DNA from: Enterococcus phage fHoEfa03
DNA length: 41,011 nucleotides
Sequence record: PV296018.1
Reading direction: 5' to 3' (one strand)
In this document: positions 12 through 39,996 of the stretch, piece after piece
Position numbering within the stretch: position 1 is the first letter of the stretch
How the letters are laid out: every line of letters starts with the position of its first letter
Program-made: the position numbers and the translations under genes
The notes under the pieces: model-generated
Told to the model about the DNA's origin: nothing
The model's input: the letters and a program-made list of their open reading frames with translations, nothing else
Database searches by the model: none

Positions 12-177
12 ACGAATCTCCCTTTACGAAGTTTCAAAACAGCCTTTTTCCCTCGTAAAACACGATTAAAAACTGGTTTCTTTTCAATAATATCAACCGT
101 TTCACAGATTGTTTCATAATCTCACTAATACGAATTTCCTCCCTCATAAACAGCACAAAACCTGGTTTCTCAAACAA
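12..177. repeat. Two degenerate direct repeats (ACGAAT-TCCCT...AAACAGC...AAAACTGGTTTCT) at the genome left end. Candidate cos-proximal or terminase-binding repeats.
   Basis: Copy 1 ~12-85 and copy 2 ~131-177 share ordered sub-motifs: acgaatctccct / acgaatttcctccct, aaacagc, aaaactggtttct / aaacctggtttct. Non-coding. Confidence 0.4.
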
Positions 178-186
178 CAGGTTTTG
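156..186. repeat. Inverted repeat caaaacctg-N13-caggttttg (9-bp stem).
   Basis: Perfect reverse-complement arms at 156-164 and 178-186. No T-run follows, so it is not a terminator. Possible operator or binding site. Confidence 0.4.
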
Positions 187-195
187 TGGTACAAT
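187..195 (+). promoter_or_regulatory. Extended -10 promoter element TGgTACAAT preceded by a T-tract (TTTTGTGGTACAAT).
   Basis: Matches TGnTAnAAT. The same TTTTGTG(G/T)TAnAAT architecture recurs at 1483, ~3505 and 14283. Confidence 0.35.
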
Positions 196-1001: not shown

Positions 1002-1475
1002 ATGGCAAGACCACGAAAATTAATCAACGCAACAAACAAACACTATACTGAAGAAGAACGTATTCAAAAACAAAAAGAAGAGGAAAAGTTATATAACTAT
1101 GAACCTTTAGACTTCTCATATTTTCCAATGGGATTGTTACGAGGTGCTTATGCAGAATGGGAACGAATTGGTAACTTCGTAGGAGATTTACCGCTTAGTG
1201 AGTTAGATTCACAGACCCTGGTTTCTTACTGTAACTACGTTTACTTATATAGTAAACTAGCTGAAGAGGTATCTATTGAGGGTGAAGTGACATCAGATGG
1301 CAAGCTAAACCCCAAAGTAACCGCAATGATGGGTTATAGTAAGCAAATCAAAAGCGCAACTAATGACTTAGGTTTAACTATCAATTCAAGATTGAAACTG
1401 GTAGCACCAAAAGAAGTAGAGGACGAAAGCAAAGACCCACTAGGTCAATTGCTTAAAATGCGTACACAAGCATAA
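1002..1475 (+). CDS. terS: Terminase small subunit (P27-family-like).
   Basis: ~157 aa. Sits immediately upstream of the large terminase and downstream of an HNH gene, the typical HNH-terS-terL arrangement of cos phages. Good RBS (GGAGGTGGACTAAATG). Confidence 0.65.
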   Translation: MARPRKLINATNKHYTEEERIQKQKEEEKLYNYEPLDFSYFPMGLLRGAYAEWERIGNFVGDLPLSELDSQTLVSYCNYVYLYSKLAEEVSIEGEVTSDGKLNPKVTAMMGYSKQIKSATNDLGLTINSRLKLVAPKEVEDESKDPLGQLLKMRTQA

Positions 1476-1482
1476 GATTTTG

Positions 1483-1491
1483 TGTTATAAT
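1483..1491 (+). promoter_or_regulatory. Extended -10 promoter TGtTATAAT (TTTTGTGTTATAAT) immediately after terS.
   Basis: Perfect TGnTATAAT. An identical tttgtgttataat occurs at 14279-14291. Confidence 0.45.
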
Positions 1492-4873: not shown

Positions 4874-5423
4874 AATTAGACAACTACAACAGGTTGAAAC
4901 AGTAACAGACAATATTGTTGAAGGCTACGCTTTAAAGTTTGATTCACCTAGTGAAAACTTAGGTGGATTCATTGAGTTCATAGATAAGCGTGCATTAGAT
5001 GGTGTTGATATGAGTGACGTTCGTATGTTCGTTGACCATGATTCAAGTAAGTTATTAGGACGGACAAAGAGTGGAACATTAACATTAGAGGTTGACGACA
5101 TTGGGTTAAAATTTAGAGCATTACTTCCTGATACATCAGTAGGACGTGATGCAATGGAACTAGTTAAACGCGGTGACCTTAGTCAGTGTTCGTTTGGATT
5201 CACAGTTGCTAAAGATGAATGGCGCAAAGCTGATGGAATAAATCACAGAACTATCAAACAAATCAAGTCACTATTTGAAATCTCACTGGTTTCAATTCCA
5301 GCATATGCAGACACAGATGTTAGTGTGGCTAAACGTTCATTAGAACAAATGGAAGAGGAAGCAAAACAATTTCAAAAGCGTAAACTAGAATTAGAATTAA
5401 ACCTATTAGGGTTATACAAGTAA
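4836..5423 (+). CDS. Prohead maturation protease (HK97 / S78-family-like).
   Basis: ~190 aa gene between portal and capsid. The real start may be the GTG at 4860 behind an AAGGAG RBS. Confidence 0.7.
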   Translation: MKKKECQQVKNLEIRQLQQVETVTDNIVEGYALKFDSPSENLGGFIEFIDKRALDGVDMSDVRMFVDHDSSKLLGRTKSGTLTLEVDDIGLKFRALLPDTSVGRDAMELVKRGDLSQCSFGFTVAKDEWRKADGINHRTIKQIKSLFEISLVSIPAYADTDVSVAKRSLEQMEEEAKQFQKRKLELELNLLGLYK

Positions 5424-5474
5424 CACCCACAAGTTCCCTTGTTCGTGATATACTATCTTTAGTAAGAAAAATAA
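5423..5474 (+). promoter_or_regulatory. Late promoter: box ACACCCACAA, 13 nt, extended -10 TGaTATACT, conserved leader ATCTTTAGTAAGAAAAATAA.
   Basis: The same architecture is found at 8484-8535, 9232-9283 and in modified form at 18861-18892. Confidence 0.55.
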
Positions 5475-5492: not shown

Positions 5493-6740
5493 ATGTCACG
5501 GCAAGAACTTATGGAACAAGCACAAACTTTATTATCAGAAGGTAAACTTGATGAAGCTGAAAAAGTAATGCAACAAATTAAAGCTTTAGATGAGGAAAAA
5601 CCTAAAGAAGAAGAACGTGCAGTTGATAATAAAGAAGAGGAGAAACCAGAGGAAGAACCTAAAGCAGAAGATGCTAAGGACGAACCAAAGGAAGAACCTA
5701 AAGAAGATAAGGAAGAAACAAAAGAAGAACGTTCAGCAAAAACTGAACAAGATTTTGAAGAACCTAAAGAGGAACCAAAGGAAGAACCTAAAACAGAAAA
5801 ACGCTCACTAGAGCAAAAAGGAGAAGAAAATATGGAGAAAGTTATTTTAGATGGAAAAGAAGTAGAAAATAAAGAAGTGCGTGGATTCTTAGAATACTTA
5901 CGCTCAAAAGAAACACGTGCATTGCCTGAATCATTTGAAGGTGTTAAGTCTGCGGATGCATCAGCAATTATCCCAGAAGAAATCATCACAAAAGCTAAAA
6001 TGTTACCTGAAACAGTTGTTGACTTACGTAATATGGTTACACGTCAAAAAGTAACAAATGCTATGGGTAAATATCCAATCTTGAAAGCTAATGAAGCCGT
6101 GTTGGCATCAGTTGAAGAACTTAAAAAGAACCCTGATTTAGAAGGACCAGCTTTCGAAGAAGTCAAATATGAAGTTGAAACTTACCGTGGTCAAATTGCA
6201 GTAGCAGAAGAAGCTTTACAAGATTCTGATGATGACTTATCTGGAATCATTGCACGTCACATTCAACGTCAAGGTTTGAACACAGCTAACAAAGCTATCG
6301 TTACTAAATTAAAAACAGCAACAGCAGTAGCAGCAACATCAATTGATGACTTGAAAACACAAGTTAACACTGGTTTTGACCCAGCTTACAACTTAGAGTT
6401 TATTGTTTCTCAATCATTCTTTAACGCTTTAGACCAAATGAAAGACGCTAACGGTCGTTACTTACTAGAAGATGACATCAAAGCACCATCTGGTAAATCT
6501 CTATTAGGACGTAAAGTAACTGTTTTAGCTGATAAATTAATTGGTACAGTAGACGGTGACAAAGTAGCATTCTTAGGACAACCTGATGCATTCGCAGTCT
6601 TCTTCGACCGCGTAGACACAACTGTACGTTGGGTTGAGCATCAATACTTCGGTCAAGTATTAGCAGTAGCTATGCGCTTTGACTGTGAAGTCGTTGATAA
6701 AAACGCTGGTAAATATATCACTTTAACACCAGCACCCTAG
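5493..6740 (+). CDS. Major capsid protein (HK97 fold) with an N-terminal scaffold-like acidic EPKE-repeat 'delta' domain.
   Basis: Low-complexity N-terminus (EEPKEEPKE repeats) followed by a ~300-aa capsid domain. Sits in the capsid position. The ATG at 5493 has RBS AAAGGGGTG. The gene ends CCC-TAG. Confidence 0.85.
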   Translation: MSRQELMEQAQTLLSEGKLDEAEKVMQQIKALDEEKPKEEERAVDNKEEEKPEEEPKAEDAKDEPKEEPKEDKEETKEERSAKTEQDFEEPKEEPKEEPKTEKRSLEQKGEENMEKVILDGKEVENKEVRGFLEYLRSKETRALPESFEGVKSADASAIIPEEIITKAKMLPETVVDLRNMVTRQKVTNAMGKYPILKANEAVLASVEELKKNPDLEGPAFEEVKYEVETYRGQIAVAEEALQDSDDDLSGIIARHIQRQGLNTANKAIVTKLKTATAVAATSIDDLKTQVNTGFDPAYNLEFIVSQSFFNALDQMKDANGRYLLEDDIKAPSGKSLLGRKVTVLADKLIGTVDGDKVAFLGQPDAFAVFFDRVDTTVRWVEHQYFGQVLAVAMRFDCEVVDKNAGKYITLTPAP

Positions 6741-6804
6741 TACGCCACCTGTGGTAGGACAGGTGACACCAGCTGAAACATCAGCAACAATTGAATTATC
6801 GTAA
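6735..6804 (+). other. Conserved 3' element with a candidate +1 recoding site CCC_UAG plus hairpins (cacctg/caggtg and gctga/tcagc). The +1 frame encodes STPPVVGQVTPAETSATIELS and stops at 6802-6804.
   Basis: 63 nt match 9119-9181, downstream of the major tail gene, at 62 of 63 positions. Confidence 0.5.
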
Positions 6805-6808: not shown

Positions 6809-6840
6809 TAAGAGGTGGGGCATTCGCCTTACCTCTTTTT
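6809..6840 (+). terminator. Intrinsic terminator after the capsid gene.
   Basis: aagaggtggggcattcgccttacctcttttt. The aagaggt/acctctt stem is followed by a T-run. Confidence 0.6.
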
Positions 6841-8479: not shown

Positions 8480-8483
8480 GTGA

Positions 8484-8535
8484 CACCCTAAAACACGTTG
8501 ATTAATGATATAATTATTCTAGTAAGAAAATATAA
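8484..8535 (+). promoter_or_regulatory. Late promoter copy: ACACCCTAAA box, TGaTATAAT, leader TATTCTAGTAAGAAAATATAA.
   Basis: Aligns with 5423-5474 and 9232-9283. Confidence 0.5.
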
Positions 8536-8557: not shown

Positions 8558-9124
8558 ATGGCAGTAGTAGGTTTTAAGAAAGCTATTATCAGCGTACCTA
8601 AAGCAGAAGGTTCTGGCGTTGATAAATACACAATTGATAAAAGCGGTGGCGGTACTATTGAAGCGTCAATTCAAGGAATTTCAGCAGAACAAACAACCGT
8701 TTATGCGTCAAACGTTCCAATTTGGGTATCAGCTAAAGGGGTTGGAGAGTTAACAGCTTCATTAAACGTATTTGACTTGTATAAAGACAACGTTTATGAG
8801 AAAATTTTAGGTATTGAACGTGGTGAAGATGGTATTGCAATCGTTGGCGAAGATACAGAAGCACCTTACGTTTCAGCAGTATTTGTTGCAGACGGTGCAG
8901 ACGGTAAAGAAATGTACTTTGGTTTAGTTAAAGGACGTTTCAGCCACCCAGAAATCGCATTGAATACAACAGAATCTGGTGGTACAGAACCAAACACAGA
9001 AACAATTGAAGGTTCATTTGTAACAGATTCACGTGGCTTCGCATACATGAGTGCTGTTTCAAGCGAAACATTAACACTTGATAAGTTTGTTGACAAAGTA
9101 AACAATATTAATCCATTGCCCTAG
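8558..9124 (+). CDS. Major tail protein.
   Basis: 188 aa. Sits directly before the G / G-T chaperone and tape measure genes. The gene ends CCC-TAG. Confidence 0.8.
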   Translation: MAVVGFKKAIISVPKAEGSGVDKYTIDKSGGGTIEASIQGISAEQTTVYASNVPIWVSAKGVGELTASLNVFDLYKDNVYEKILGIERGEDGIAIVGEDTEAPYVSAVFVADGADGKEMYFGLVKGRFSHPEIALNTTESGGTEPNTETIEGSFVTDSRGFAYMSAVSSETLTLDKFVDKVNNINPLP

Positions 9125-9188
9125 TACGCCACCTGTGGTAGGACCGGTGACACCAGCTGAAACATCAGCAACAATTGAATTGACTTAG
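9119..9188 (+). other. Second copy of the conserved 3' recoding-like element (CCC_UAG plus hairpins). The +1 frame encodes STPPVVGPVTPAETSATIELT and stops at 9186-9188.
   Basis: Near-identical to 6735-6797, with one A/C difference. Confidence 0.5.
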
Positions 9189-9214
9189 AAGAGCTTAACG
9201 GCTCTTCTTTTTTA
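9188..9214 (+). terminator. Intrinsic terminator after the major tail gene.
   Basis: gaagagc-ttaacg-gctcttc stem followed by TTTTTTT. Confidence 0.65.
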
Positions 9215-9231: not shown

Positions 9232-9283
9232 ACACCCACAACCACTAGTGTTTATGCTATAATATCTTTAGTAAGAAAAATAA
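9232..9283 (+). promoter_or_regulatory. Late promoter copy: ACACCCACAA box, TGcTATAAT, leader ATCTTTAGTAAGAAAAATAA.
   Basis: Aligns with 5423-5474. Confidence 0.55.
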
Positions 9284-14242: not shown

Positions 14243-14252
14243 AAAAACATTA

Positions 14253-14283
14253 AGACAACCCCTTTACAAGGGTTGTCTTTTGT
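14253..14283 (+). terminator. Intrinsic terminator after the TMP.
   Basis: agacaaccc-ctttacaa-gggttgtct stem followed by TTTGTG. An extended -10 TGtTATAAT follows at 14283-14291. Confidence 0.65.
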
Positions 14284-14317
14284 GTTATAATACTAGTATA
14301 GTAAATTATAAAGGAGA

Positions 14318-18765: not shown

Positions 18766-18770
18766 TATAA

Positions 18771-18798
18771 AACACCTCTTTTCAGGGGTGTTTTTATT
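18771..18798 (+). terminator. Intrinsic terminator after tal.
   Basis: aacacctcttttcaggggtgttttt. Confidence 0.6.
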
Positions 18799-18860
18799 TG
18801 CTTTTAAATGGATAATCACCCACATTGGCGACTGAAAAACGCTTAGAATGCTCCTATGAA
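18785..18860. repeat. 76-nt direct repeat copy A (terminator tail, TTTATTTGCTTTTAAATGGATAATCACC, then CGCTTAGAATGCTCCTATGAA) upstream of the lysis cassette.
   Basis: ~80% identical to 20558-20633 downstream of the endolysin. Confidence 0.6.
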
Positions 18861-18892
18861 GCACACCATTTCCCCTATTTAAGTGATATACT
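18861..18892 (+). promoter_or_regulatory. Late promoter variant (GCACACCATTT box, then TGATATACTATAAT) in front of the lysis genes.
   Basis: Aligns with the capsid promoter acacccacaagttcccttgttcgTGATATACTAT. Confidence 0.45.
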
Positions 18893-20540: not shown

Positions 20541-20573
20541 AAAAAGACACCCTATATGGGGTGTCTTTATTTG
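20541..20573. terminator. Bidirectional-looking intrinsic terminator between the late and early operons (agacaccc-tatatg-gggtgtct, A-run before, T-run after).
   Basis: Perfect 8-bp stem. Located at the convergence of the + late and - early transcription units. Confidence 0.65.
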
Positions 20574-20633
20574 CGTTTTAATGTATAATCACCTTACTTT
20601 GAATCTGAAACGCGCTTAGAATGCTCCTATGAA
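20558..20633. repeat. 76-nt direct repeat copy B (terminator tail, TTTATTTGCGTTTTAATGTATAATCACC, then CGCTTAGAATGCTCCTATGAA). Overlaps the 3' end of the nrdH-like gene.
   Basis: See copy A at 18785-18860. Confidence 0.6.
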
Positions 20634-20854
20634 ACAATGGTTTCTAAGATATTTGGAGCATATCCGCCAATTACAACAGGTTCATCATCTTTGAAAACCA
20701 CTGGTAAGGAACGCAATCCGCATTTCATTAGATATTCTAGTGCTGCTAAATCTTCATCTACATTAATTTCTTTATAGTTAACTCCTAACTGTTGTAGTTT
20801 ACGTTTTGTAAAACTACAAGATGCACAATTGTTTTTAGTATACACTGTAATCAT
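20627..20854 (-). CDS. NrdH-like glutaredoxin.
   Basis: 75 aa with a CxxC motif (YTKNNCASCSFTKRKL) in a thioredoxin-fold context. Confidence 0.6.
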   Translation of the reverse strand: MITVYTKNNCASCSFTKRKLQQLGVNYKEINVDEDLAALEYLMKCGLRSLPVVFKDDEPVVIGGYAPNILETIVS

Positions 20855-20865
20855 TTTAATTCCTC

Positions 20866-21396
20866 CTATTTATATTTAAATGAATATCCTTTATGTGTTT
20901 TTTGTTTACCAGCTAAACATAAGGATATTGATGATACTGACAACTCAAGCTCGTTAGCGCATTCTGTCATTGATTTAAATTCATAAGTCTTTTTATTTGA
21001 TATACAAAATATACCTATATTACGGTTACCCTGATTTGAATACTGCTCTTTATAGGTAGCCCACCTTAAGTTTTCAACTCTGTTATCAAATCTATCCCTG
21101 TTTATATGGTCTACTGTAGGTTTGTTTTCTGGGTTTGGTATGAATGCTTCTGCTACTAAGCGGTGTAAATATTCAATACGCTTTACATTGTTATATAATG
21201 TTATTTTCTTGTAACCATTTGCTACCTTACCGCTTAGTTCTTTTAACTTTAATAACTGTCCTTTCCTATTTAACCTAGGTAAGGAAAAAACCCTACCTAG
21301 GGATGTTATTACATAGTTACCATTAATAACATATTCTTCGTTAGTCAATGTAATTTTTGACATTAAGTTTTCTATATCCAAGTTTTTCTCTTTCAT
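20866..21396 (-). CDS. Free-standing HNH homing endonuclease (paralog of 492-1001 and 29649-30182).
   Basis: HRLVAEAFIPNPENKPTVDHINRDRFDNRVENLRWATYKEQ core. The longest ORF (to 21435) overlaps the polymerase 3' end, so the true start is probably the internal Met (21396 or 21363). Confidence 0.75.
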   Translation of the reverse strand: MKEKNLDIENLMSKITLTNEEYVINGNYVITSLGRVFSLPRLNRKGQLLKLKELSGKVANGYKKITLYNNVKRIEYLHRLVAEAFIPNPENKPTVDHINRDRFDNRVENLRWATYKEQYSNQGNRNIGIFCISNKKTYEFKSMTECANELELSVSSISLCLAGKQKTHKGYSFKYK

Positions 21397-23632
21397 GATG
21401 TGCTTGTTCAACCCTTTCTTTGTAGTTTTCACCAAACCAAAGGACTAACGTGTCTTCTACCTGGTCAATATAGTATTGTTTGTCAATTTCATCAATGGTA
21501 ATACCTTCACCAATTGCTTCATTACTGATTGTGTAGTATTCTGGAGCGTTTGCCAATCCTTTTGTATATGAAATATTATCCTTAAATTCATCAGCTTCAA
21601 TATCTAATAATTGACCTTCTTTGACCTTAAACAATTCTACTGCATTAGTTTTGTCTTTTACTGCGAATACGCGGTTAACCTTTTGAGCATTGGTTTCATT
21701 ACCTTCAATGTCCCTTTTAATTGTTTTATCATAACTCCAGCCAGTTTTGGTAATAATTTGAAACTGTCTTACATCTTCACATTCTTCAATAAATTCTTTG
21801 TAGTCTTTACCAGCCACCAAATAGTTGATAAATGCATTTGAAACAACTGCTTTTGAAACTTTTAATCCACCAGTTAAACCAATAGCACCTTTAATTTTAA
21901 CCTTCCCATTTGGTTGTACTGCAATGTAGTTATTTACATCTTTTTGCCAAATTTCACGGAACATATCCTTATCTAATGTTAGCCCAATCTTGTTAGCAAA
22001 TTCATCTAATGCTTCATCAATAGCTTTATCATCTGCTTCACTGTTTGGAATATATGCGTGTGCGTCCGTATTTGATTGAATGAATTGTGCTTTACCTTTA
22101 ATTAATTCAAACATGTTTGTCATAATCAACTGACCTGTTGCACAAACCAAGAATTGGTTTCTTGGGTCATATAAACCATTAAACTGCGCACCACTGGCAC
22201 CAAACTTAGTGTTAAGCGGTAACTTGATACCGTTAATCATTACCCAAGTTGGTACCTTTACGCCTTTAATATCTGCTGTTTCTTCACCTGAATACTTAGC
22301 ATCCATGCGTTGTTTAAGTAAGTCACTATAGCGGTGAAGTTTATCTTTTGGAATGTTTCTTGATAGTAGGTTGAACTGAACCATTGTATTTGGATATAGT
22401 GAACCCCAGTCACGCATTGGGAATAATCCAATATGAATATAGCTAGGTACCGCACCGTGTACACCACCACTACCATAGACCATTTCATAACCATCTTCAG
22501 TAGTGTAGTTTAGTGACACGTTTAGTTTGCCTTTTTCGTTTAATTCAAATTCATGATTGAGATATGCGTCTGCAATCTCTTTTGTATTAATGTTTAATCG
22601 TTTATCTAACTCTAATGGGTCTGTCAAGTCTGGTCTAACTTCTTGTTTTGTTGCACCAAGTAACTTAGCTGTTAAGTTAGCATTGGTTTGTAATAAGTCT
22701 GTCTTATCCATGTCAAACATTAAAGCAATAGTTGCTTTAGCTAACAACATACTTATGTTTTGTTCAAAACGTTTTTCAGTTGCTAATACATCATTTTTAC
22801 AGTATGCAATGTTTTTCGCTTTTTCTTCCTCTGTCAATGGTCTATCCATATCAAAGTCTACTTCTGTTTCTTTAATGTTGATGCCTAAGAATGCTGAATG
22901 TTCTTTTAAGCTAAAACCTTTGTTATCTTGATATAGGTCCATACCAAAAAGTGGTGTTTTATGACTATCAAACATTTTGTAAACTAGACCTCTATTATCT
23001 GATTCAATAATTGCCTTAGACATCTGATAAGCATTTTTGCCTTGTAGATACCCACGCATTACATTGTTGTCATATGACGCATTATTATACCCAATAAACA
23101 TTGAATCACGGTATTCAAGGTAAAACTTGCGTAATTCGTCAAGGTTGTTATTAATGATAAACCATTCTTTGGTAAAGTAATCACGAAATACAAATAAACT
23201 GTCATGTTTAAAAATCTCAATATCAAATAATAAAATGGTTTGCTTTGTTAATGGTTCACTTGGTTTAAATGGTACAACATTACCACTTGAAATACTTCTG
23301 ATTGGTTTTACTGTAGCAAAACCATTACTGAACTTCAAATCAATCAATAAACGGTCACCAACTTCAACATTTTTCCATTTATCCCAGTCATATTTGCGAA
23401 ACTTCATGATATAGCTTGTAACGTCCCTACCATCTTCTAATGAACGCATTTTAACTACCTTCATTTCTTTTCCTTTTGCTGATAACTTTTTGGTAGATTC
23501 AATGACAACCACATCATGTTGACCAGCTCGCATAGGGTCAAGACTTCGTGAATTACCTTTTAGCTTACTGAATACTTCCAATAGTTTTTCAGCTAGTTTT
23601 GGTGCTTCTTTAAATTCTGCAATATTTTTCAT
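21341..23632 (-). CDS. Family B DNA polymerase.
   Basis: Exo I LLFDIEIF (DxE). Exo III-like YCKNDV. Motif A DWGSLYPNTM (DxxSLYPS). Motif B-like KFGASGAQFNGLY. Motif C-like SNTDAH. Confidence 0.8.
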   Translation of the reverse strand: MKNIAEFKEAPKLAEKLLEVFSKLKGNSRSLDPMRAGQHDVVVIESTKKLSAKGKEMKVVKMRSLEDGRDVTSYIMKFRKYDWDKWKNVEVGDRLLIDLKFSNGFATVKPIRSISSGNVVPFKPSEPLTKQTILLFDIEIFKHDSLFVFRDYFTKEWFIINNNLDELRKFYLEYRDSMFIGYNNASYDNNVMRGYLQGKNAYQMSKAIIESDNRGLVYKMFDSHKTPLFGMDLYQDNKGFSLKEHSAFLGINIKETEVDFDMDRPLTEEEKAKNIAYCKNDVLATEKRFEQNISMLLAKATIALMFDMDKTDLLQTNANLTAKLLGATKQEVRPDLTDPLELDKRLNINTKEIADAYLNHEFELNEKGKLNVSLNYTTEDGYEMVYGSGGVHGAVPSYIHIGLFPMRDWGSLYPNTMVQFNLLSRNIPKDKLHRYSDLLKQRMDAKYSGEETADIKGVKVPTWVMINGIKLPLNTKFGASGAQFNGLYDPRNQFLVCATGQLIMTNMFELIKGKAQFIQSNTDAHAYIPNSEADDKAIDEALDEFANKIGLTLDKDMFREIWQKDVNNYIAVQPNGKVKIKGAIGLTGGLKVSKAVVSNAFINYLVAGKDYKEFIEECEDVRQFQIITKTGWSYDKTIKRDIEGNETNAQKVNRVFAVKDKTNAVELFKVKEGQLLDIEADEFKDNISYTKGLANAPEYYTISNEAIGEGITIDEIDKQYYIDQVEDTLVLWFGENYKERVEQAHHEREKLGYRKLNVKNYID

Positions 23633-23666
23633 GTGTTAATTCCTCCAATTTGTTTATACTACTATC

Positions 23667-23897
23667 TTACTTTATTAATGTGATTCTGTCAAGTGTTTTT
23701 GTTGCTAATTTCAACTCACGTTGTAAGAACCCTTCTGTAGCACCATTTGCAAATCTACAGATAAGTTCTACACCATCTACTGGCTTAAACAGTTTAGCTA
23801 ATATATATACTTTATCACCTTTGTTACCAATACCGTTGTGGTTATCGTTTTTAAGTTCTACATAATTACCTACATTAAATGTGTTTTTCATTGTCAT
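23667..23897 (-). CDS. Hypothetical protein (76 aa).
   Basis: ORF with an AGGAGG RBS. No recognisable motif. Confidence 0.45.
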   Translation of the reverse strand: MTMKNTFNVGNYVELKNDNHNGIGNKGDKVYILAKLFKPVDGVELICRFANGATEGFLQRELKLATKTLDRITLIK

Positions 23898-23961
23898 TAC
23901 CTCCTATATGTATATAATAACAAAACCCCTAACATAAGTCAAGGGTTTTGTTTGTTTATTT

Positions 23962-24669
23962 TTAGAATGGTAAATCATCAGCTGTAATGTCAATTGAGTG
24001 ATAAACTTCTTCAACTGGTTTTTGTTCTGGTTGGTCCTCTGGGTCAAGAGGTAATGCTTCTAACCAACCAACGTTGCTTGTTGGGTCTAATTGATTTTTA
24101 TTAACTGTAACATCAACAACCATTCCAACCGCTTTTTCTGCTGTTTCCCATTCCACACCTACATCTTCAAATAGTTCGTTGAATCGCGCTTTTGCTTTTC
24201 CAAGTTTAGCCATGTTAGGAATGAACATTTCTTTTTTAGCAACCCATACCCCTGTGTTGAAGTTGAATGCGTAGTGCTTACCTTTATGTTCAATAACTAC
24301 TGAACGTCCTTTAGGTGAATCTTGAATTGCAACAATAGGTGCTTTCTTAATACGTTTTAAGCTAACCAGTGGTTTCTCAATTTTGATAAAACCGGAGCCT
24401 TCTGTAAAGTATGCTTTACCTGTTTGTTCATCAACGTATAACTCAATAGTGTTATCTTCTTCAAATGAGCCACCAGCAACTTCTAGTGCTTCATTATATT
24501 TTTTCATAGCTTCTTCTGAATCTTCCCATTTTTCAGTATCTTTGTTGTATTGCTGTTTGTATGCTACTGCATCAAACATTGCTGAATAATCTTCTTTTGC
24601 AACTTGTAACTTAGTTGAAATTTCTGAATCCTCTACACTCACGATAACTAATTTTTGTAATTCTGACAT
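23962..24669 (-). CDS. SSB-like / ssDNA-binding-type replication protein with an SSB-style acidic C-terminal tail (...ADDLPF).
   Basis: The C-terminus SIDITADDLPF mimics the bacterial SSB partner-binding tail (DDDIPF). Sits in the replication module next to the polymerase. The fold is not assignable by eye. Confidence 0.45.
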   Translation of the reverse strand: MSELQKLVIVSVEDSEISTKLQVAKEDYSAMFDAVAYKQQYNKDTEKWEDSEEAMKKYNEALEVAGGSFEEDNTIELYVDEQTGKAYFTEGSGFIKIEKPLVSLKRIKKAPIVAIQDSPKGRSVVIEHKGKHYAFNFNTGVWVAKKEMFIPNMAKLGKAKARFNELFEDVGVEWETAEKAVGMVVDVTVNKNQLDPTSNVGWLEALPLDPEDQPEQKPVEEVYHSIDITADDLPF

Positions 24670-24746
24670 AATAAAATTCCTCCAATAATTTGTTTTTATT
24701 TTTTACTACTTAAATAGTATAACATACTTTCCCTAACTTGTGTAGG

Positions 24747-24995
24747 TTATTTACCTAAAATAATATAACGCTTATTGTAATTAATGAAAATATTAATAGG
24801 TTTACCACCCAGTTCATGTACGCTACCTTTTAATGTGTATTCATTTTCATTTTTAGTAATTGTAAAATCATCTAAATAGTATCCTACATCATCAATCTTT
24901 ACCCAACTACTTACATACGTTGAAATACCAAAAACAACTTCTGATTTCGTTTTTCCATCTAATGTGTGTATATTCCACATTGGTAATTCTTTCAT
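24747..24995 (-). CDS. Hypothetical protein (82 aa).
   Basis: ORF translationally coupled to the upstream gene. Confidence 0.45.
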   Translation of the reverse strand: MKELPMWNIHTLDGKTKSEVVFGISTYVSSWVKIDDVGYYLDDFTITKNENEYTLKGSVHELGGKPINIFINYNKRYIILGK

Positions 24996-25814
24996 TTACA
25001 TTTCCTCCCATTCAATACCTAATTTTTTAAGTTTGGCTAAATCTGATGTCTTAACCTTAATACAAGTATAACTCACTTCAATTGGTTTGTCAACAACTTT
25101 ATCTTCATTTCCTGTTAAAATTACAATTTCAGGAACTTTCGTTTCTCTTACTCGTTGTTGTTCAGCTTCCAGTCGTTCACGTTCTGACTTCATTTCTTTA
25201 AACTCTTCAATAGCTTCACTCATATTGAAACCATTTCTTGAATATGCAATAAGTATTGCCATACGGTCATCTTTATCTGTTACCTCTTCTTTCAAGTCTG
25301 AATAGTCTTGTTTAAACAGTTCAAAATACATTACAACCGCTTGTGTGATTGTCTTTTGTGACGTTGCTTTGTTAGTTACTAAGCTTCTATTTTTGGCAAT
25401 GAACTTATCAAAAGATAGCCATTGTGGCGCATTATATGAAGCGTGGTACTTATTGAAAAGTTCTTCAATTTGTAATGTACGTTCTTTTTGTTCTTGCTCG
25501 TTGAACGTTTTAATTTGTACATTAACATGTTCTATACCTTCCTTCAATACATCTTTTAATGTCTGTATTTTTTCGTTTAGTTCCTCATAAGGTGTCATGA
25601 TTTCACTTTTCACTAGTTTACGTTGTGTGTCTAGCTCTCTGATTCGTTTATTGATTGTAGCTACTAGTTTTTTATTCTCTTTGATTGTTTCTTCTGTAAC
25701 TTCTTGCTCTTTCATTTTATCAGCCAACTTCTGTGCGTCATTTAGTATTTTTTCATAGTCTGCAAATTCGATTGACTGAACACCATTGGTTTTAATTGCA
25801 ATTTCAAATTCCAT
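24996..25814 (-). CDS. Hypothetical coiled-coil protein (272 aa). Possible recombination or replication accessory factor.
   Basis: Long Lys/Glu-rich heptad regions. Position between the MBL-fold and SSB-like genes. Confidence 0.45.
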   Translation of the reverse strand: MEFEIAIKTNGVQSIEFADYEKILNDAQKLADKMKEQEVTEETIKENKKLVATINKRIRELDTQRKLVKSEIMTPYEELNEKIQTLKDVLKEGIEHVNVQIKTFNEQEQKERTLQIEELFNKYHASYNAPQWLSFDKFIAKNRSLVTNKATSQKTITQAVVMYFELFKQDYSDLKEEVTDKDDRMAILIAYSRNGFNMSEAIEEFKEMKSERERLEAEQQRVRETKVPEIVILTGNEDKVVDKPIEVSYTCIKVKTSDLAKLKKLGIEWEEM

Positions 25815-26040
25815 TGCGTTCGTCCTCCGCCTTTAATCGTAACCACTTAGCTTTGAAAATCTCGTTAAATGTGAACCCCATTTTAATTAGGTCCGTTCGT
25901 TCCTCTAATGTGTTTAGTAGGTCATTTACAGTAAAACCATAGTCTAACATTAGTAACATTTTATAACTCATTTGTTCATTATTCATAAAAATTTTCCTCC
26001 GCTTCAATAATCTTTTTGATTGTTTCTTTAAATGGTTCAC
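25804..26040 (-). CDS. Hypothetical protein (78 aa).
   Basis: ORF only. Confidence 0.4.
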   Translation of the reverse strand: MNHLKKQSKRLLKRRKIFMNNEQMSYKMLLMLDYGFTVNDLLNTLEERTDLIKMGFTFNEIFKAKWLRLKAEDERNGI

Positions 26041-26112
26041 CTACATTATCATAACCAACTTTAATAATGTAACTATTCATCATGTCAATAATGTTCAGAA
26101 AGTCTGTTTGTG

Positions 26113-26892
26113 TTAGGTTAATTGATTTTTCTGTTTCCATTCTTCTACGTCCTCCATTGTCAATCTGTTTTCATCTTTTTTAGTACGTTTGATTAGTCCT
26201 TCAAAAGTTGAATATGTTTCGCTTTGGTGTAATGGTACCACAATTGAACCTGGTTTGCAATGCTTTTCTGTAAATTCTTTATGTTCAGTTGAAGCTAAGT
26301 GACGATATGAACCGTTACTAAAAATATCAAAGCCAGTATGTGCTTTTGTTGATTCATAAAATTCAATTACTAAAGGATTGTAATTAGATTCTAACAGACA
26401 GTAGTCTACTTGTAAAGAGTTTTTATCTAAATATTCCTGATAATCAATTGTAGTACTTAAATCAGTGGCATATAATAATACCTCTTTTGTTTCTATATCT
26501 TCAATAATAAAGCCATGACAGTCAACTAATTCCTCACCAGCACCATGATAGTTCTGAATAGTTGTGAATTTCATTGTACCAATTTGAAACTGAAAGTTAT
26601 CACTAAAAACAACATCAGCTGGAATTTTTGTTTTTTCAAACATTAGATTACTTACTTCTTCATTAGCTAAAATTTTAATGTTTGGAAAGTTTTCACGAAT
26701 CTTCTTATAAACAGCTGGCTTGAAATGGTCCCCGTGTCTATGGGTAAATATTAAAAAATGTTTTTCATATAGTAATGGCTCTATAAATTTGTAAGGCTTA
26801 CCTGCATCAACTAATATATTAAATTGATTAGTATATATTGATACTGAATTTCCTTTACTACCTGTGTAATGTACGTTCCATTTGAATGTCAT
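26113..26892 (-). CDS. Metallo-beta-lactamase-fold hydrolase.
   Basis: HxHxDH signature (FTHRHGDHF) followed by downstream His/Asp residues. Confidence 0.65.
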   Translation of the reverse strand: MTFKWNVHYTGSKGNSVSIYTNQFNILVDAGKPYKFIEPLLYEKHFLIFTHRHGDHFKPAVYKKIRENFPNIKILANEEVSNLMFEKTKIPADVVFSDNFQFQIGTMKFTTIQNYHGAGEELVDCHGFIIEDIETKEVLLYATDLSTTIDYQEYLDKNSLQVDYCLLESNYNPLVIEFYESTKAHTGFDIFSNGSYRHLASTEHKEFTEKHCKPGSIVVPLHQSETYSTFEGLIKRTKKDENRLTMEDVEEWKQKNQLT

Positions 26893-26902
26893 TTGCTACC
26901 TC

Positions 26903-27382
26903 CTAATATTGAGATGGTGTATTGCGTTCAGACCATGGGTTGCCCTCTAATTCCCATAACTCTTTACCAAGTCGTTTAGCGGTGTCCCACTTATCCTTGT
27001 CAATTGCTTTATTAATTTCAATAATTAATTTATGACGTTTATCCTCTACTTTTTTGCGCAGTGGACGTGCAACACGTTGTTTGCCTTCTTGTGGGTTAAT
27101 AGCCCACCCAAGGTTGTTGCAGTGTGTGTTGTTAACATCACCATCTTTATAATATAGGTAGCCTAGATTGTCTTTATTTAGTACGAATGATTCAGCTACT
27201 AAGTTAGCAATAAAAAACTTACGTGTCTTATTGTGTGAGCCTTCTAAGACTACGTATGGTTTGCCGTTATCCTCATATGAGTTCCAGACCGTTAAACCAG
27301 TGTCACGGTCTATTACATATCCCATGTTTGAAACTGCGTAACGGTCGTAGGGTTCAAACAATGGTTCAAATTTTTCAATCAT
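26903..27382 (-). CDS. HNH-family homing endonuclease, divergent (NUMOD4-like YAVSNMGYV N-terminus).
   Basis: FFIANLVAESFV...NNTHCNNLGWA resembles the HNH_3 core of the other copies but is more divergent. Confidence 0.5.
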   Translation of the reverse strand: MIEKFEPLFEPYDRYAVSNMGYVIDRDTGLTVWNSYEDNGKPYVVLEGSHNKTRKFFIANLVAESFVLNKDNLGYLYYKDGDVNNTHCNNLGWAINPQEGKQRVARPLRKKVEDKRHKLIIEINKAIDKDKWDTAKRLGKELWELEGNPWSERNTPSQY

Positions 27383-27588
27383 TTAAGTTCCTCCATTAGT
27401 TTTTCTAGGTCCTCTTTTCTTACCATTACACAAGGGTCATCATCTGATAAATTGTTCTTATCTCTTATACTAATCAAAGTATCGCCATCTGGGTACATTG
27501 TCAACTCTAAAATATCATTTTTTGAATATGCACAATCAACTGTAATTGTTTTGTAATTACCAATTAATCGTTTGAATACTTGAATCAT
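27379..27588 (-). CDS. Hypothetical protein (69 aa).
   Basis: ORF only. Confidence 0.4.
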   Translation of the reverse strand: MIQVFKRLIGNYKTITVDCAYSKNDILELTMYPDGDTLISIRDKNNLSDDDPCVMVRKEDLEKLMEELK

Positions 27589-27589
27589 A

Positions 27590-28072
27590 TTATAACCCTC
27601 TTTCTATAATCTTGTACAACTCATCCTCAAATATCTTATATACATGTATTCTGTTAGAAAAGAATTTCTTAGCTTTCCCAAAGTGATAGCTAGCATCATG
27701 CATATTATTAAATCTATATACCTTAAAATCTCTTTTATCCAATATGATTAGTGGTCTATGTCTACCAAGAGTTAGGTTATTATCCCAAGCATGTTTACAG
27801 TTTTCTTTAGCTGTAACCCACTCAAGATTGGGAACCCTGTTATTTGATTTATTAGCATCAATATGGTTTACTTGTGGTTTGTTTTCTGGATTTGGAATGA
27901 ATAGTTTAGCTACTATTCTGTGGACTTTTTCTGGGTGTGAGTTTACTGTAACTATGCGATAACCATCTTTATCTAGGTGACCCTTGTGTAATCCTTTTTG
28001 TTTCGTTATAACTAATCCTGATGGTGATACCTTTATATTATCATAGTCTACAAAATTATTGTTTTCTACCAT
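27590..28072 (-). CDS. Free-standing HNH homing endonuclease.
   Basis: HRIVAKLFIPNPENKPQVNHIDANKSNNRVPNLEWVTAKEN core, near-identical to the copy at 492-1001. Confidence 0.75.
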   Translation of the reverse strand: MVENNNFVDYDNIKVSPSGLVITKQKGLHKGHLDKDGYRIVTVNSHPEKVHRIVAKLFIPNPENKPQVNHIDANKSNNRVPNLEWVTAKENCKHAWDNNLTLGRHRPLIILDKRDFKVYRFNNMHDASYHFGKAKKFFSNRIHVYKIFEDELYKIIERGL

Positions 28073-28568
28073 TCTCCCACTCCTCTATCATCCAAGTTAA
28101 ATATGTTTTTGCTTTTTTTAAATCTTCTACTTTATTTTTTTTCTCGTGTCTAGAAATATATTTTTGTAAATTACCAAGCAAAAAGCCATAATATTGCTCT
28201 TCACTCATATTAGCTTTCATGATTTCAATTGGTTGAATTCCGTTGTTTGTGTAATGTTCTTGATTGTCAATTAAGTCTGAGTGTATTTTATGAGCTACTT
28301 TTTCTAAATGTTTTGTAACAACATCATCTGATGGGTTTAAATATTCAATACTTTTTTCTTGTTCAGGTTCAACACCATCACATTTTGAATCTTCAAAAGT
28401 AACTTCTAATTCAGGAATAACAAAATGGTTTTTAAAAGCACTCTCTGTAGTATATGTGTGTGTTCCGTCATGATATTTGACTTTCCACATTTTACCTTCC
28501 ATTTTATGTGCTACACCTGTTAAACCATTATCTTTGCGTTTTACTACCATTCCATCTTGTAATTTCAT
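28056..28568 (-). CDS. Hypothetical protein (170 aa). The C-terminal region is reminiscent of DUF3310-type phage proteins (uncertain).
   Basis: ORF with a GGAGG RBS. The C-terminal YYGFLLGNLQKYISRHEKKNKVEDLKKAKTYL pattern is suggestive only. Confidence 0.45.
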   Translation of the reverse strand: MKLQDGMVVKRKDNGLTGVAHKMEGKMWKVKYHDGTHTYTTESAFKNHFVIPELEVTFEDSKCDGVEPEQEKSIEYLNPSDDVVTKHLEKVAHKIHSDLIDNQEHYTNNGIQPIEIMKANMSEEQYYGFLLGNLQKYISRHEKKNKVEDLKKAKTYLTWMIEEWENGRKQ

Positions 28569-28598
28569 AATTAATTCCTCCTAATGTTTTATAATATC

Positions 28599-28627
28599 AG
28601 TCTATCATATTGACGTTCCTTTGTCAA
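28599..28627 (-). promoter_or_regulatory. Early promoter TTGACA-N17-TAGACT.
   Basis: Reverse complement of tgtcaa at 28622-28627 and agtcta at 28599-28604. Confidence 0.4.
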
Positions 28628-28645
28628 CACAAAACTTTTATTTTA

Positions 28646-28730
28646 TGGTATAATATATTTATAGTTGGTAAAGGTGATTCCTCCCACCTTACACCATCCC
28701 ACCTCACGTTACGGCGTGGGGTTTTTTATT
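28646..28730 (+). ncRNA. Candidate small plus-strand RNA inside the minus-strand early region: extended -10 TGgTATAAT (28646-28654), ~65-nt transcript, intrinsic terminator (cccac...gtggg then TTTTTTATTTT).
   Basis: A perfect TGnTATAAT and a plus-oriented hairpin with T-run sit with no plus-strand ORF. Divergent from the minus-strand promoter at 28599-28627. Confidence 0.3.
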
Positions 28731-28974
28731 TTGCATATTTTGCGATAAGTTGAAAAACTTCTTGCGCCGTTTCAATGTTTTCAAAACTAACAAATCCACT
28801 TGCTACATGTTGCATCATTACTGAATAGTTATAATTTGTACTATACATATCACCAAACCCATTTGGATTGTACTTTACATCAATAAGACAACCGTTTGGG
28901 AACAATTTTCTAAACATATGAGCGTTATTCATCTTTTGCCATTCTCCGTTCTTCTCGTTTTTTAACTGAATCAT
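28726..28974 (-). CDS. Hypothetical protein (82 aa).
   Basis: ORF only. Confidence 0.4.
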   Translation of the reverse strand: MIQLKNEKNGEWQKMNNAHMFRKLFPNGCLIDVKYNPNGFGDMYSTNYNYSVMMQHVASGFVSFENIETAQEVFQLIAKYAK

Positions 28975-29668
28975 ATGTGCGTTTCAGTTCTGTACTGTCA
29001 AGTGGTGGATTACATCCTATCTGGTTAGTATATTGCGCCCACACCCATACTTCTTCATGTTCTAAGCCTGTAGCAAACAATTTGCCAATCATTTGCGTTA
29101 TCCAGTTGTTTCGTCCTCCTTCATCACTTCCAGCGATAATATCACCTAACAGGTTTGCAGTCCATTTGCGTTCACGTTTTTTGTTTTGCTTTTGAATTGT
29201 TTTATCTGTAAAAATATCAAACCATTTCTCTGGTAGGTCTGCAATTGGTGAATTGTCAATCACTTCATATTTTACACCATCAATTGTTGAACCCCACCCT
29301 AAAACATATCTACCACTACACTGAAAGTCAACACCTTCAAGCTCCTTATGGTTTTGAATGAATTGCACATCATTATATTTTTCAGGTAGCTTGTAATACA
29401 TATGAAGTCCACCACTTGGTGTCATAACTGTTTTAGTGTCTGGTAATTCAATATCATACTTTTCGCAAAACTCTTTCAGGTTATCAGCACCACTAATACC
29501 ATTATGAGTGTCAATATCAATCACTACTACCCCATTTAATGAACCAGTTAGGTACCCCCAGTTACCACCTTCTTTTATCCATTCACGAACAACATTTTCA
29601 TTCTCTCCATTAAATGAACCTGCCACTAAAGGTGCTTTACCATTCTTTTTAATTCTCAATACTTTCAA
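28925..29668 (-). CDS. Primase-polymerase (PrimPol, bifunctional DNA primase/polymerase N-terminal-type) domain protein.
   Basis: VVIDIDTHNGISG places the DxD metal-binding motif in the PrimPol context. Confidence 0.55.
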   Translation of the reverse strand: MKVLRIKKNGKAPLVAGSFNGENENVVREWIKEGGNWGYLTGSLNGVVVIDIDTHNGISGADNLKEFCEKYDIELPDTKTVMTPSGGLHMYYKLPEKYNDVQFIQNHKELEGVDFQCSGRYVLGWGSTIDGVKYEVIDNSPIADLPEKWFDIFTDKTIQKQNKKRERKWTANLLGDIIAGSDEGGRNNWITQMIGKLFATGLEHEEVWVWAQYTNQIGCNPPLDSTELKRTYDSVKKREERRMAKDE

Positions 29669-30182
29669 ATTTAAAACCTCCTGCTGATTTGTTTATATAT
29701 TTATCCGAAATCACTTTACTTATTGTTCCTTCATCTATATTTAGTGTGTTACTTGCTTCTCGTATACTACTATAATATACTTCCTTACCTTCTTTGTCAA
29801 TAGATTTTATTTTCTTTTTTAAACCAGTTGCTTTTTTATTAACTTGTTGCTCTGCATATGTTGCCCACCTTAAGTTTTCAACTCTGTTATCAAATCTATC
29901 TCTGTTCACATGGTCTACTGTAGGCTTTTTTTCTGGGTTTGGTATGAATGCTTCTGCTACTAATCGGTGGACTGAATATGTTTTTGTATATCCGTTATTA
30001 TCACTAAGTCTTACACAATTATATTCAAACCCTCTTTTACCTCTTTTTTGATTTTTTAGTATAGTTTCTTTGGTTTCTAATAGACCAGTGTTACATCTAA
30101 CTATTCTTGCTTTTGACTTAATTCTACCAAAGTTTGATATTTTATATTTATTAAGATTATTCAGTTCTCTCCATTCTTCCAT
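29649..30182 (-). CDS. Free-standing HNH homing endonuclease.
   Basis: MEEWRELNNLNKYKISNFGRIKS N-terminus. HRLVAEAFIPNPEKKPTVDHVNRDRFDNRVENLRWATYAEQ core. Confidence 0.8.
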   Translation of the reverse strand: MEEWRELNNLNKYKISNFGRIKSKARIVRCNTGLLETKETILKNQKRGKRGFEYNCVRLSDNNGYTKTYSVHRLVAEAFIPNPEKKPTVDHVNRDRFDNRVENLRWATYAEQQVNKKATGLKKKIKSIDKEGKEVYYSSIREASNTLNIDEGTISKVISDKYINKSAGGFKFESIEN

Positions 30183-30194
30183 TTCGTTTCCTCC

Positions 30195-30392
30195 CTAAAA
30201 GTCTTTACTGATAGTTACTACTTGACCGTTATGGTCAACCTTTTCTGCACCCCATGTGTCTGTGGTATCAATGAATTTAAAAATAAAACATCCACCAAGA
30301 AACATAATGAATAGTAAGCAGAACCACGCTTGTATATAATCTTTGTATGTGTTTTTATACCATTTTTGATTTTTATCTTCTTTAGTAAACAT
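30195..30392 (-). CDS. Small membrane protein (65 aa).
   Basis: TM segment WFCLLFIMFLGGCFIF. GGAGG RBS. Confidence 0.5.
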   Translation of the reverse strand: MFTKEDKNQKWYKNTYKDYIQAWFCLLFIMFLGGCFIFKFIDTTDTWGAEKVDHNGQVVTISKDF

Positions 30393-30424
30393 TGTTGTTT
30401 CCTCCTTAGTTATCTTATGTACCT

Positions 30425-30453
30425 ACTATATCATAGGATATAGTAGTTGTCAA
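30425..30453 (-). promoter_or_regulatory. Early promoter TTGACA-N17-TATAGT with an embedded 10-bp palindrome (ctactatatc / gatatagtag) and CATAAGATAACTAAGGAGG leader.
   Basis: Read as the reverse complement of 30425-30453. The same architecture is at 37274-37302. Confidence 0.55.
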
Positions 30454-30630
30454 CTATTTAATTGTATAAAATACTAAATTTTCTAATTTTAAGGTGAATG
30501 TTTCTGAATCACCAAAACTAAGTTCTAAAAATCGTTGTGTGATATTTACACGTTTAACATTGGTAAATAAGATATTTCTATTATCTTTACCAGCCATAAA
30601 GTTTACTGTTACTTCTTTTAATTCTTTCAT
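30454..30630 (-). CDS. Hypothetical 58-aa protein. Its start ATG overlaps the stop of the helicase gene (ATGA).
   Basis: MKELKEVTVNFMAGKDNRNILFTNVKRVNITQRFLELSFGDSETFTLKLENLVFYTIK. Below the ORF-track cutoff. Confidence 0.4.
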   Translation of the reverse strand: MKELKEVTVNFMAGKDNRNILFTNVKRVNITQRFLELSFGDSETFTLKLENLVFYTIK

Positions 30631-32316: not shown

Positions 32317-32329
32317 CTTTTTTATTACC

Positions 32330-32521: not shown

Positions 32522-32523
32522 TA

Positions 32524-32733: not shown

Positions 32734-32734
32734 T

Positions 32735-33170: not shown

Positions 33171-33201
33171 TTATTTATTCCTCCTAATTGATTATATACT
33201 T

Positions 33202-33680: not shown

Positions 33681-33709
33681 CTCATATCCTCCTTTTAATT
33701 TATGAATTA

Positions 33710-37302: not shown

Positions 37303-37307
37303 GTGTT

Positions 37308-39890: not shown

Positions 39891-39987
39891 GTTAAACAAG
39901 AGTAAAAGTACAACAATGGTTTGTTATTTAATAAAAATAATAGATTAAAATTAATGATTAATCTATTCCCTAAAGCACAAATAAGTA

Positions 39988-39996
39988 TGCTATAAT
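39988..39996 (+). promoter_or_regulatory. Extended -10 promoter TGcTATAAT for the rightward right-end module.
   Basis: ataagtatgctataatatag. Confidence 0.45.

Follow-up and report, generated by a model that had tools for sequence, protein, structure and literature searches.

A five-base-pair box in the -35 slot of delayed host-type promoters of an Enterococcus siphophage and its possible recognition by a polymerase-tethered factor

The 41,011-nucleotide sequence of Enterococcus phage fHoEfa03 (record PV296018.1), called the window below, covers essentially the whole genome of a virulent siphophage of Enterococcus faecalis (genus Efquatrovirus), with 99.9% identity to vB_Efa_VP15 and LY0322 over 4.9 kb. 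We consider here three promoter cassettes in this genome that stand in front of the genes for the capsid, the major tail (tail-tube) protein (MTP) and the tail assembly chaperone (TAC, or G). In the reading that we prefer, and to which we give a probability of about one half, the cassettes are host sigma-A promoters of a delayed (middle/late) class, in which a polymerase-tethered factor recognises a short box that takes the place of the -35 element. Judging from the sequence, the polymerase itself is almost certainly the host sigma-A holoenzyme, because the -10 region conforms to the sigma-A type throughout and none of the 41 open reading frames (ORFs) that were scanned proved to be sigma-like.

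The three cassettes and the elements they share

The composite motif ACACCC-N17-TGNTATAMT-N5-TAGTAAGAAAA has three matches in the window (at 5423, 8483 and 9232) and none in 100 dinucleotide-preserving shuffles; the exact TAGTAAGAAAA occurs only at these cassettes, which an independent repeat search also picks up (families D9 and D16). The sequences at the three sites read as the original prediction had described them, namely as a common cassette ahead of the capsid, major tail and chaperone genes. The upstream part taken alone is not significant, as ACACCCWMAA with at most one mismatch has 20 matches against 15.2 expected. The 13-nt spacers between the box and the -10 are unrelated among the three copies, so the similarity of the sites is confined to discrete elements and does not point to a recent duplication.

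All three cassettes carry the sigma-A extended -10 in the form TGnTATA(A/C)T, with CGTG, AATG and TATG at positions -17 to -14. At the distance where a canonical sigma-A -35 would lie, 16-18 bp upstream of the -10, the best match to TTGACA is only 2-3 of 6. The earlier suggestion that a conserved element unlike TTGACA sits in the -35 slot is therefore confirmed, and so is the promoter-like character of the cassettes, with their excellent extended -10, ahead of high-copy structural genes. The further claim that each cassette comes just after an intrinsic terminator holds for one of the three, site 3 (hairpin 9187-9208 and a T run). The terminator scan gave no terminator-like hairpin upstream of sites 1 and 2, which begin at, or a few bases from, the stop codon of the preceding gene. 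Another hairpin from the same scan lies after the capsid gene, which is thus bracketed as its own expression unit by cassette 1 and this hairpin.

The element that matters most is the box. It was first drawn as ACACCC(A/T)(C/A)AA, and its degenerate tail, C(A/T)(C/A)AA, turned out to be the real core, whereas the ACACC half (-38 to -34) is conserved only within Efquatrovirus; in the E. faecium-phage relatives the sequence is AACACAA, TACACAA, TGCACAA or GCCCACAA. The core, mostly CACAA, occupies 5 bp at -33 to -29 in place of TTGACA. It reads CACAA in the capsid cassette (5428-5432, preceded by the lineage-specific ACACC at 5423-5427), CTAAA, a variant, in the MTP cassette (8488-8492), and CACAA in the chaperone cassette (9237-9241). 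A frequency matrix of 40 unique members of the class shows how narrow its tolerance is: at -33, for which sigma-A would prefer G, C is found in 37 of the 40 and T in the remaining three, never A or G; T at -34 is present in 3 and G at -35 in none; and A-29 is conserved though it falls outside the hexamer. The same matrix gives TRTGnTATAAT for the -10 region, the full Gram-positive extended -10, with T at -17 in 36 members, a purine at -16 in all 40, and a hexamer that is TATAAT in 32 and TATACT in 8.

The conservation of the box was then compared with that of the -10 in six groups of orthologous promoters (capsid, tail tube, chaperone, SSB-like, post-terS and antisense), each drawn from 5-6 lineages. 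Mean pairwise identity was 0.90-1.00 at -33 to -29 and 0.72-1.00 at -17 to -7, the free n at -13 excepted, while the spacer and flanks reached about 0.4-0.6. Between lineages the box varies as little as the -10, which indicates that it is under selection. In the capsid group, for example, (A/G)CCCACAA and TGnTATAMT are kept through six lineages and the spacer varies, and the MTP promoters of the E. faecium phages have CACAA in the same register as the CTAAA of cassette 2. Neither the matrix nor the six groups revealed a conserved dyad or a second copy of the box at a fixed distance. More distant relatives were sought through the tail-tube protein; the search reached down to 57% identity and added two further lineages, both of which keep the extended -10 and C-33 and have the remainder of the box changed. 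In L074, one of the two, the tail-tube and chaperone promoters both read CTTAT, and such a coherent change within one genome, seen at these two promoters only, would fit a lineage-specific reader.

Downstream of the -10 the cassettes share the 11-nt stretch TAGTAAGAAAA. The start sites predicted from the usual 7-nt distance to the -10 fall on the A of TAGTAAG (5461, 8521 and 9270) and give A-rich 5' untranslated regions (UTRs) of 32-37 nt. The capsid leader, AGTAAGAAAAATAA, is followed by a ribosome-binding site (RBS), AAAGGGG, at about 5478 and the ATG at 5493; the MTP leader, AGTAAGAAAATATAA, leads to the ATG at 8558; and the chaperone ATG is at 9304, the relatives of this last ORF carrying the domain PF23857 (Phage_TAC_19). 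The tail-tube leader, AGTAAGAAAATA, is nearly invariant across six lineages and must therefore be under selection.

The original prediction saw in this conserved leader an RNA-processing or translation-enhancer element, an idea that was not supported. The 5' UTRs fold no better than their shuffles (z of +1.25, +0.84 and -0.17), Rfam has no match anywhere in the window, and the complement of the leader, which would mark an antisense partner, is not found elsewhere in the window. A leader device specific to the box promoters was also rejected: among 2.9 million viral contigs TGNTATAMT-N5-TAGTAAGAAAA has 79 matches, which come down to some 15 distinct sites in unrelated contigs, about five-fold more than the 3 matches of each of two composition-matched permuted controls. 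At these unrelated sites the -35 is typically canonical (TTGAC or TTGAT) and the motif often runs straight into the Shine-Dalgarno sequence. The arrangement TGnTATAAT-N5-TAGTAAGAAAA behind a canonical -35 is seen, for instance, at L026, L055 and L057 (all in one 154-kb viral contig), L015/L053, L029, L054 and L063, and it recurs several times inside one genome. Since unrelated phages use it behind a canonical -35, the leader is not specific to the box class; the contig survey suggests a trait shared more widely by strong promoters of low-GC phages. It is probably a favourable context for initiation with an open A-rich leader behind it, and nothing was seen that would point to a processing site.

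The capsid and tail-tube genes have a second feature in common at their other end. Both finish with CCC TAG and continue into the same sequence of about 60 nt (6735-6801 and 9119-9185), in which a perfect 7-bp hairpin, CACCTGT-ggtagg-ACAGGTG, starts 9 nt past the stop. The +1 frame beyond the stop would read STPPVVG(Q/P)VTPAETSATIEL(S/T)*. A +1 programmed frameshift at a CCC-stop site is known from the Listeria phage PSA, and by analogy the two gene ends look like sites of this type; if they are frameshifted, the same 21-residue tail would be added to a fraction of the capsid and tail-tube proteins. Within the capsid gene, the N-terminal part contains degenerate 12-nt repeats (5571-5800) that encode an EEPK-rich stretch.

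Early and delayed promoters across the genome

The genome is laid out in two arms. The packaging, head, tail and lysis genes occupy the plus strand from about 490 to 20540, the replication and early genes the minus strand (20627-39383), and a few small plus-strand ORFs (40046-40894) lie ahead of the HNH/terS block. Promoters on the two strands were compared in seven genomes of about 100% to 67% identity (the window, AL3, Ef6.4, heks, IME-EFm5, vB_EhiS_268 and 9184), counting extended -10 sites with an RBS downstream. On the structural strand [CT]ACAA stands in the exact register at 24 of 76 sites and TTGAC at none. On the replication strand the picture is reversed, with TTGAC at 52 of 84 sites and YACAA at 7, one per genome and always at the promoter of an SSB-like gene; YACAA has a background frequency of 0.0037 per position. 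The two classes are thus fully separated in these counts, and the early genes of the phage all rely on TTGACA. Counts of exact motifs in the window agree with this division: TTGAC(A/T)-N17-TGnTATA(G/C)T has 6 matches, all on the minus strand, against 0.05 expected, and YACAA-N13-TGNTATAMT has 6 against 0.01.

The TG of the extended -10 is present in both classes. The early class has a conserved start region of its own, CATAAG(A/T)TAA, which leads directly into AGGAGG, and its leader is CATAAGATAA. On the plus strand a single, weaker promoter of the TTGACA type (433-461, with TAAGAT as -10) stands ahead of an HNH endonuclease gene for which tblastn found no relative in two lineages and, elsewhere, best matches at different positions. 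Several early promoters carry a perfect inverted repeat of 10-11 bp over the spacer and the -10, CACCTACTATA-N8-TATAGTAGGTG (about 37270-37302 and 30425-30453, minus strand), which looks like an operator for a dimeric repressor that would shut off a subset of the early promoters. In the early arm there is also a tandem duplication of 263 nt (88% identical, 33687-34212) that has produced two 62-residue paralogues with an early promoter before each.

When every TGnTAnnnT with at least 5 of 6 matches to TATAAT was listed in the window, the box promoters grew into a family of about 10 per genome that is kept in relatives with as little as about 67% DNA identity, with members in the intergenic gaps ahead of the capsid, MTP, TAC, distal tail protein (Dit) and SSB-like genes (Table 1). 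The family is thus not made of three or four sites, as it was first described, nor is it confined to late structural genes. The label of a late promoter family suits the structural genes, but the class is not strictly late, since it also drives the SSB-like gene and an antisense promoter, and we call it delayed for this reason.

Table 1. Promoters of the delayed class, the lysis-cassette promoter and associated terminators in the window. L numbers are our handles for related genomes, each followed by the position of the orthologue.
Feature	Position	Strand	Elements	Orthologues
Promoter upstream of the small ORF/HNH/terS block	169..195	+	CTCAA 169-173; TGGTACAAT 187-195	CACAA at L006 194; CACAG at L004 35571, L005 1646
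Promoter just after terS	1465..1491	+	CACAA 1465-1469; TGTTATAAT 1483-1491	L001 1487, L003 6261, L004 34761, L005 2678, L006 924
Cassette 1, capsid promoter	5423..5474	+	ACACCC 5423-5428; TGATATACT 5446-5454; TAGTAAGAAAA 5460-5470	
Terminator-like hairpin after the capsid gene	6812..6840	+	from terminator scan	
Cassette 2, MTP promoter	8483..8535	+	ACACCC 8483-8488; TGATATAAT 8506-8514; TAGTAAGAAAA 8520-8530	
Intrinsic terminator after the MTP gene, just upstream of cassette 3	9187..9214	+	9 pairs, 4 GC, then TTTTTT	
Cassette 3, tail assembly chaperone (G) promoter	9232..9283	+	ACACCC 9232-9237; TGCTATAAT 9255-9263; TAGTAAGAAAA 9269-9279	
Promoter before the distal tail protein gene	14265..14291	+	TACAA 14265-14269; TGTTATAAT 14283-14291; leader ACTAGTATAGTAAAT; ATG 14318	
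Lysis-cassette promoter	18861..18892	+	CCATT at -33..-29; TGATATACT 18884-18892; leader ATAATAGTAGCTGAAAGG	C(C/T)ATT
Sole replication-strand member, before the 235-residue gene 23962-24669	24716..24742	-	CACAA, then TGTTATACT, then leader ATTTAAGTAGTAAAAAATAA	one per genome, 7/7 genomes
Antisense member in the early region	28628..28654	+	CACAA 28628-28632; TGGTATAAT 28646-28654	6/7 genomes; not found in L005
Early/late divergence-point promoter	39970..39996	+	CTAAA 39970-39974; TGCTATAAT 39988-39996; leader ATAGAAGTAAAGTAAAAAC; first plus-strand ORF at 40046	CTAAA at L002 40166, L003 4407; CACAA at L004 37215, L006 42450

Some of these members deserve a comment. The promoter at the divergence point is probably the main delayed-class promoter of its arm. 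The two arms are separated there by a region of 660 nt that contains 15 copies of the iteron TGTAAC(G/A)CTT (39489-39888), in both orientations and often paired about 10 nt apart. The array, probably a replication origin or a regulatory array, is found in Efquatrovirus, whereas the E. faecium-phage relatives have no such cluster. The post-terS promoter has no RBS downstream and points into the structured gap of 286 nt between terS and terL (1476-1761), where there are several hairpins, including a perfect 20-bp stem at 1591-1642, and no Rfam match; the gap could serve as a packaging signal or a processing site, or encode a non-coding RNA. Ahead of the Dit gene the box falls in the loop of a terminator (14252-14279), and the -35 hexamer of this promoter, TTTACA, also matches the sigma-A consensus at 5 of 6 positions. 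The antisense member lies back-to-back with the TTGACA box of an early promoter (TGTCAA, 28622-28627, as read on the plus strand) and may belong to the early shut-off.

The lysis-cassette promoter, which had been counted as a related version, keeps the extended -10 but not the box, having CCATT rather than C(A/T)(C/A)AA, and is only a weak relative of the family. It lies (18884) about 70 nt after a terminator (18769-18794). A 95-nt direct repeat, 77% identical and made of the terminator and the sequence downstream of it, is found on both sides of the whole lysis cassette (18769-18863 and 20542-20636), and suggests that the cassette is exchanged as a module.

The reader of the box

Sigma regions 2 and 3 can be held by an extended -10 even where the -35 is poor. 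On such promoters, the box would be read by a factor tethered to RNA polymerase, because 5 bp placed exactly in the -35 slot offer too little room to a dimeric regulator acting by itself. The factor would replace or remodel sigma region 4, in the way of MotA/AsiA at the middle promoters of T4, and would itself be made from early transcripts, so that the box promoters would fire after a delay. They would then boost the proteins needed in bulk, that is, the capsid, tail tube, chaperone, distal tail and SSB-like proteins, the capsid and tail-tube genes being further bracketed by a promoter and terminator of their own. The A of TAGTAAG is the most likely start of transcription, and the unstructured 5' UTR would be open for ribosome loading.

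The activator or alternative sigma factor that the original prediction had in mind was looked for in 41 ORFs, 30 of them scanned with PHROGs and 20 with Pfam, which cover the early arm and the genes ahead of terS. That the phage encodes an activator is still plausible, although the scan gave no candidate for it, and the search for a small DNA-binding early protein ended in one weak lead among the proteins that tblastn lists as conserved in all lineages. This is a protein of 159 residues (26903-27382, minus strand), a syntenic core protein that only this phage group has. It resembles HNH proteins, but Tyr or Phe stands in for the catalytic His in 19 of 19 homologues, and it appears to be a domesticated homing-endonuclease fold; its weak structural likeness to I-HmuI, a homing endonuclease that binds DNA, gives no link to the box. 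Other conserved early ORFs to which no function is assigned are 25804-26040, 24996-25814 and 33219-33680, and 40320-40523 is a conserved ORF of the plus strand. Two other candidates were dropped. The 235-residue product of the gene 23962-24669, considered as the activator, ends in the SSB-type tail DDLPF and is, by its sequence, probably an SSB and not a regulator. An iteron-binding protein was considered as reader of the GTAACACC part of the box, an idea that arose because the capsid box starts GTAACAC and the ACACC extension occurs only in lineages with iterons. It was rejected because the iteron weight matrix places no late promoter in its top 60 matches, the invariant CTT being missing from them all.

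Several points weigh against a tethered factor, and some of them are at the same time the case for its serious rival, in which no factor is involved at all. The scan, which detects relatives by sequence only, found no sigma, ArpU, RinA, Ltr, MotA or AsiA relative among the 41 ORFs; the 159-residue lead is weak, with a model pLDDT of 65 and a best Foldseek match, I-HmuI, at an E value of 0.05; and we found no study in the literature of transcription in Efquatrovirus or its relatives that addresses start sites, timing or dependence on a factor. Besides, in Gram-positive bacteria a TRTGnTATAAT promoter can work without any -35, and this sequence is complete at nearly every member, so a factor may be unneeded. 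The ACA of CACAA corresponds to positions 4-6 of TTGACA at a spacing of 17 bp, where a residual contact with sigma-A region 4 is possible, and the box is missing from several extended -10 promoters that come immediately behind terminators on the structural strand. From these points one may build factor-independent sigma-A promoters, at which the extended -10 suffices and the box is a weak -35 remnant (xxCACA against TTGACA) that sets strength, the late timing coming from genome copy number and the shut-off of early promoters, to which the early-promoter palindromes would be suited. We take this explanation seriously and nonetheless consider it rather unlikely. A mere weak -35 would not keep C-33 so strictly, avoid T at -34 and conserve A-29 outside the hexamer; the box, moreover, is conserved between lineages no less than the -10; and TTGAC is absent from all 76 structural-strand sites.

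The other explanations fare less well. The box could be a negative element, through which a host or early phage protein silences the promoters early in infection until it is relieved, for example by titration on replicated DNA. It is conserved, it is placed where a bound protein would block RNA polymerase, and one would expect an extended -10 promoter to be active without further help; however, it is short and asymmetric and has no partner half-site, unlike known operators, no dyad or second copy at a fixed distance is conserved, and the ORF scans offered no repressor candidate, so we hold this explanation to be improbable. Still less probable is a phage-encoded alternative sigma that reads the whole cassette, as gp28 and gp33/34 do in SPO1. 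The non-canonical -35 element and the conserved start-site region would suit it, but alternative sigmas have a -10 of their own, and here positions -17 to -7 are exactly the sigma-A consensus, including the TG and the T-17/R-16; nor did any of the 41 ORFs scanned in this 41-kb genome belong to the sigma-70 family or resemble ArpU. Finally, the three copies might be a recently duplicated or recombining cassette of the kind of the mobile promoter/stem-loop cassettes of T4-type phages, alike by common descent and not by function. The ACACC and the identical 11-nt leader, which the three copies share beyond the other class members, could be taken in this sense, and there are other long repeats in the genome (families D6 and D8). 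The unrelated spacers speak against it, as does the fact that each copy has an orthologue in the same place at about 67% identity in which the box and the -10 are kept and the rest has changed, and we find this explanation hardly credible.

Comparison with known systems

The closest functional analogue of the delayed class, in the reading with a tethered factor, is that of the middle promoters of T4. These are activated by MotA bound to its box together with AsiA in what is called sigma appropriation, the structural genes of T4 being served by gp55 late promoters. Both systems have a sigma-70-type -10, often with TGn, and a box near -30 that replaces the -35, and both are used after the early class and also drive replication genes, represented here by the SSB-like gene. 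There are clear differences as well. The MotA box is (a/t)(a/t)(a/t)TGCTT(t/c)A, and its TGCTT does not occur in C(A/T)(C/A)AA; no homologue of MotA or AsiA was found in the scanned ORFs, among which analogues undetectable by sequence are possible; the host is Gram-positive; and the same class serves structural genes too. We would tentatively suggest, as a possibility and no more, a novel switch akin to sigma appropriation, in which an early protein unrelated to MotA and AsiA attaches to the sigma-A polymerase and redirects it to about 10 C(A/T)(C/A)AA promoters per genome. If this were true, the same factor would turn on the structural genes and, through the antisense promoter, turn off part of the early programme, and the switch would be shared by the virulent Efquatrovirus siphophages and their E. 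faecium-phage relatives.

Other known arrangements resemble parts of the system. In the Thermus phage P23-45, gp39 blocks sigma region 4 and favours extended -10 promoters of the middle/late genes, which need no box. The likeness is in the switch from -35-dependent to extended -10 promoters; in the present phage, however, the TG is found in both classes and there is a conserved box. The "-16 region" (TRTG) promoters of Gram-positive bacteria are matched completely at -17 to -7, but they have no defined substitute for the -35, in contrast to the box here. SPO1, with gp28 and gp33/34, differs from this phage, where the -10 is TATAAT with TG and no sigma-70-family domain was found in the scanned ORFs. 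The RinA/ArpU/Ltr activators of temperate Gram-positive phages turn on packaging, morphogenesis and lysis genes from one regulated promoter upstream of terS, with the activator gene just before it (PMC3152322, PMC3753634). Here, on the other hand, about 10 members are distributed through the structural arm and elsewhere, and what precedes terS are genes for HNH endonucleases and for small proteins of no known kind, without a match to these families.

The closest biological parallels are SPP1 and phage K. The late promoter PL1 of SPP1 has a canonical -10 and an atypical -35, next to canonical sigma-A early promoters, and late transcription depends on the host polymerase and an unidentified early phage factor, but no consensus late promoter was found elsewhere in that genome (PMC6316719). 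By this description SPP1, also a virulent siphophage of a Gram-positive host, is much like the present phage, with canonical early promoters and a non-standard late -35; the difference is that a clear consensus is repeated here about 10 times per genome and across lineages. In phage K the late genes lack a recognisable -35 and have a -10, in some cases with TG; the host polymerase is suspected to be assisted by a phage factor, and the alignment of their promoters has no conserved feature upstream of the -10 (PMC11598898). The -10 without a normal -35 is common to both phages, and the defined box is what sets the present one apart.

The means by which virulent Gram-positive phages activate their late genes through the host polymerase are not yet settled even for the model phages. 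A sharp and recurrent signature of the late type, separate from the early TTGACA class, permits single-base tests (C-33G, for example) and the pull-down of the factor that reads it. It can also guide the choice of insertion sites and promoters for payloads when therapeutic and reporter phages of Enterococcus are engineered, whose backbones are phages of this kind. Neither SPP1 nor phage K offers such a signature, and it is in this respect, that a conserved upstream element can be defined, that the promoters described here differ from those of their two nearest parallels.

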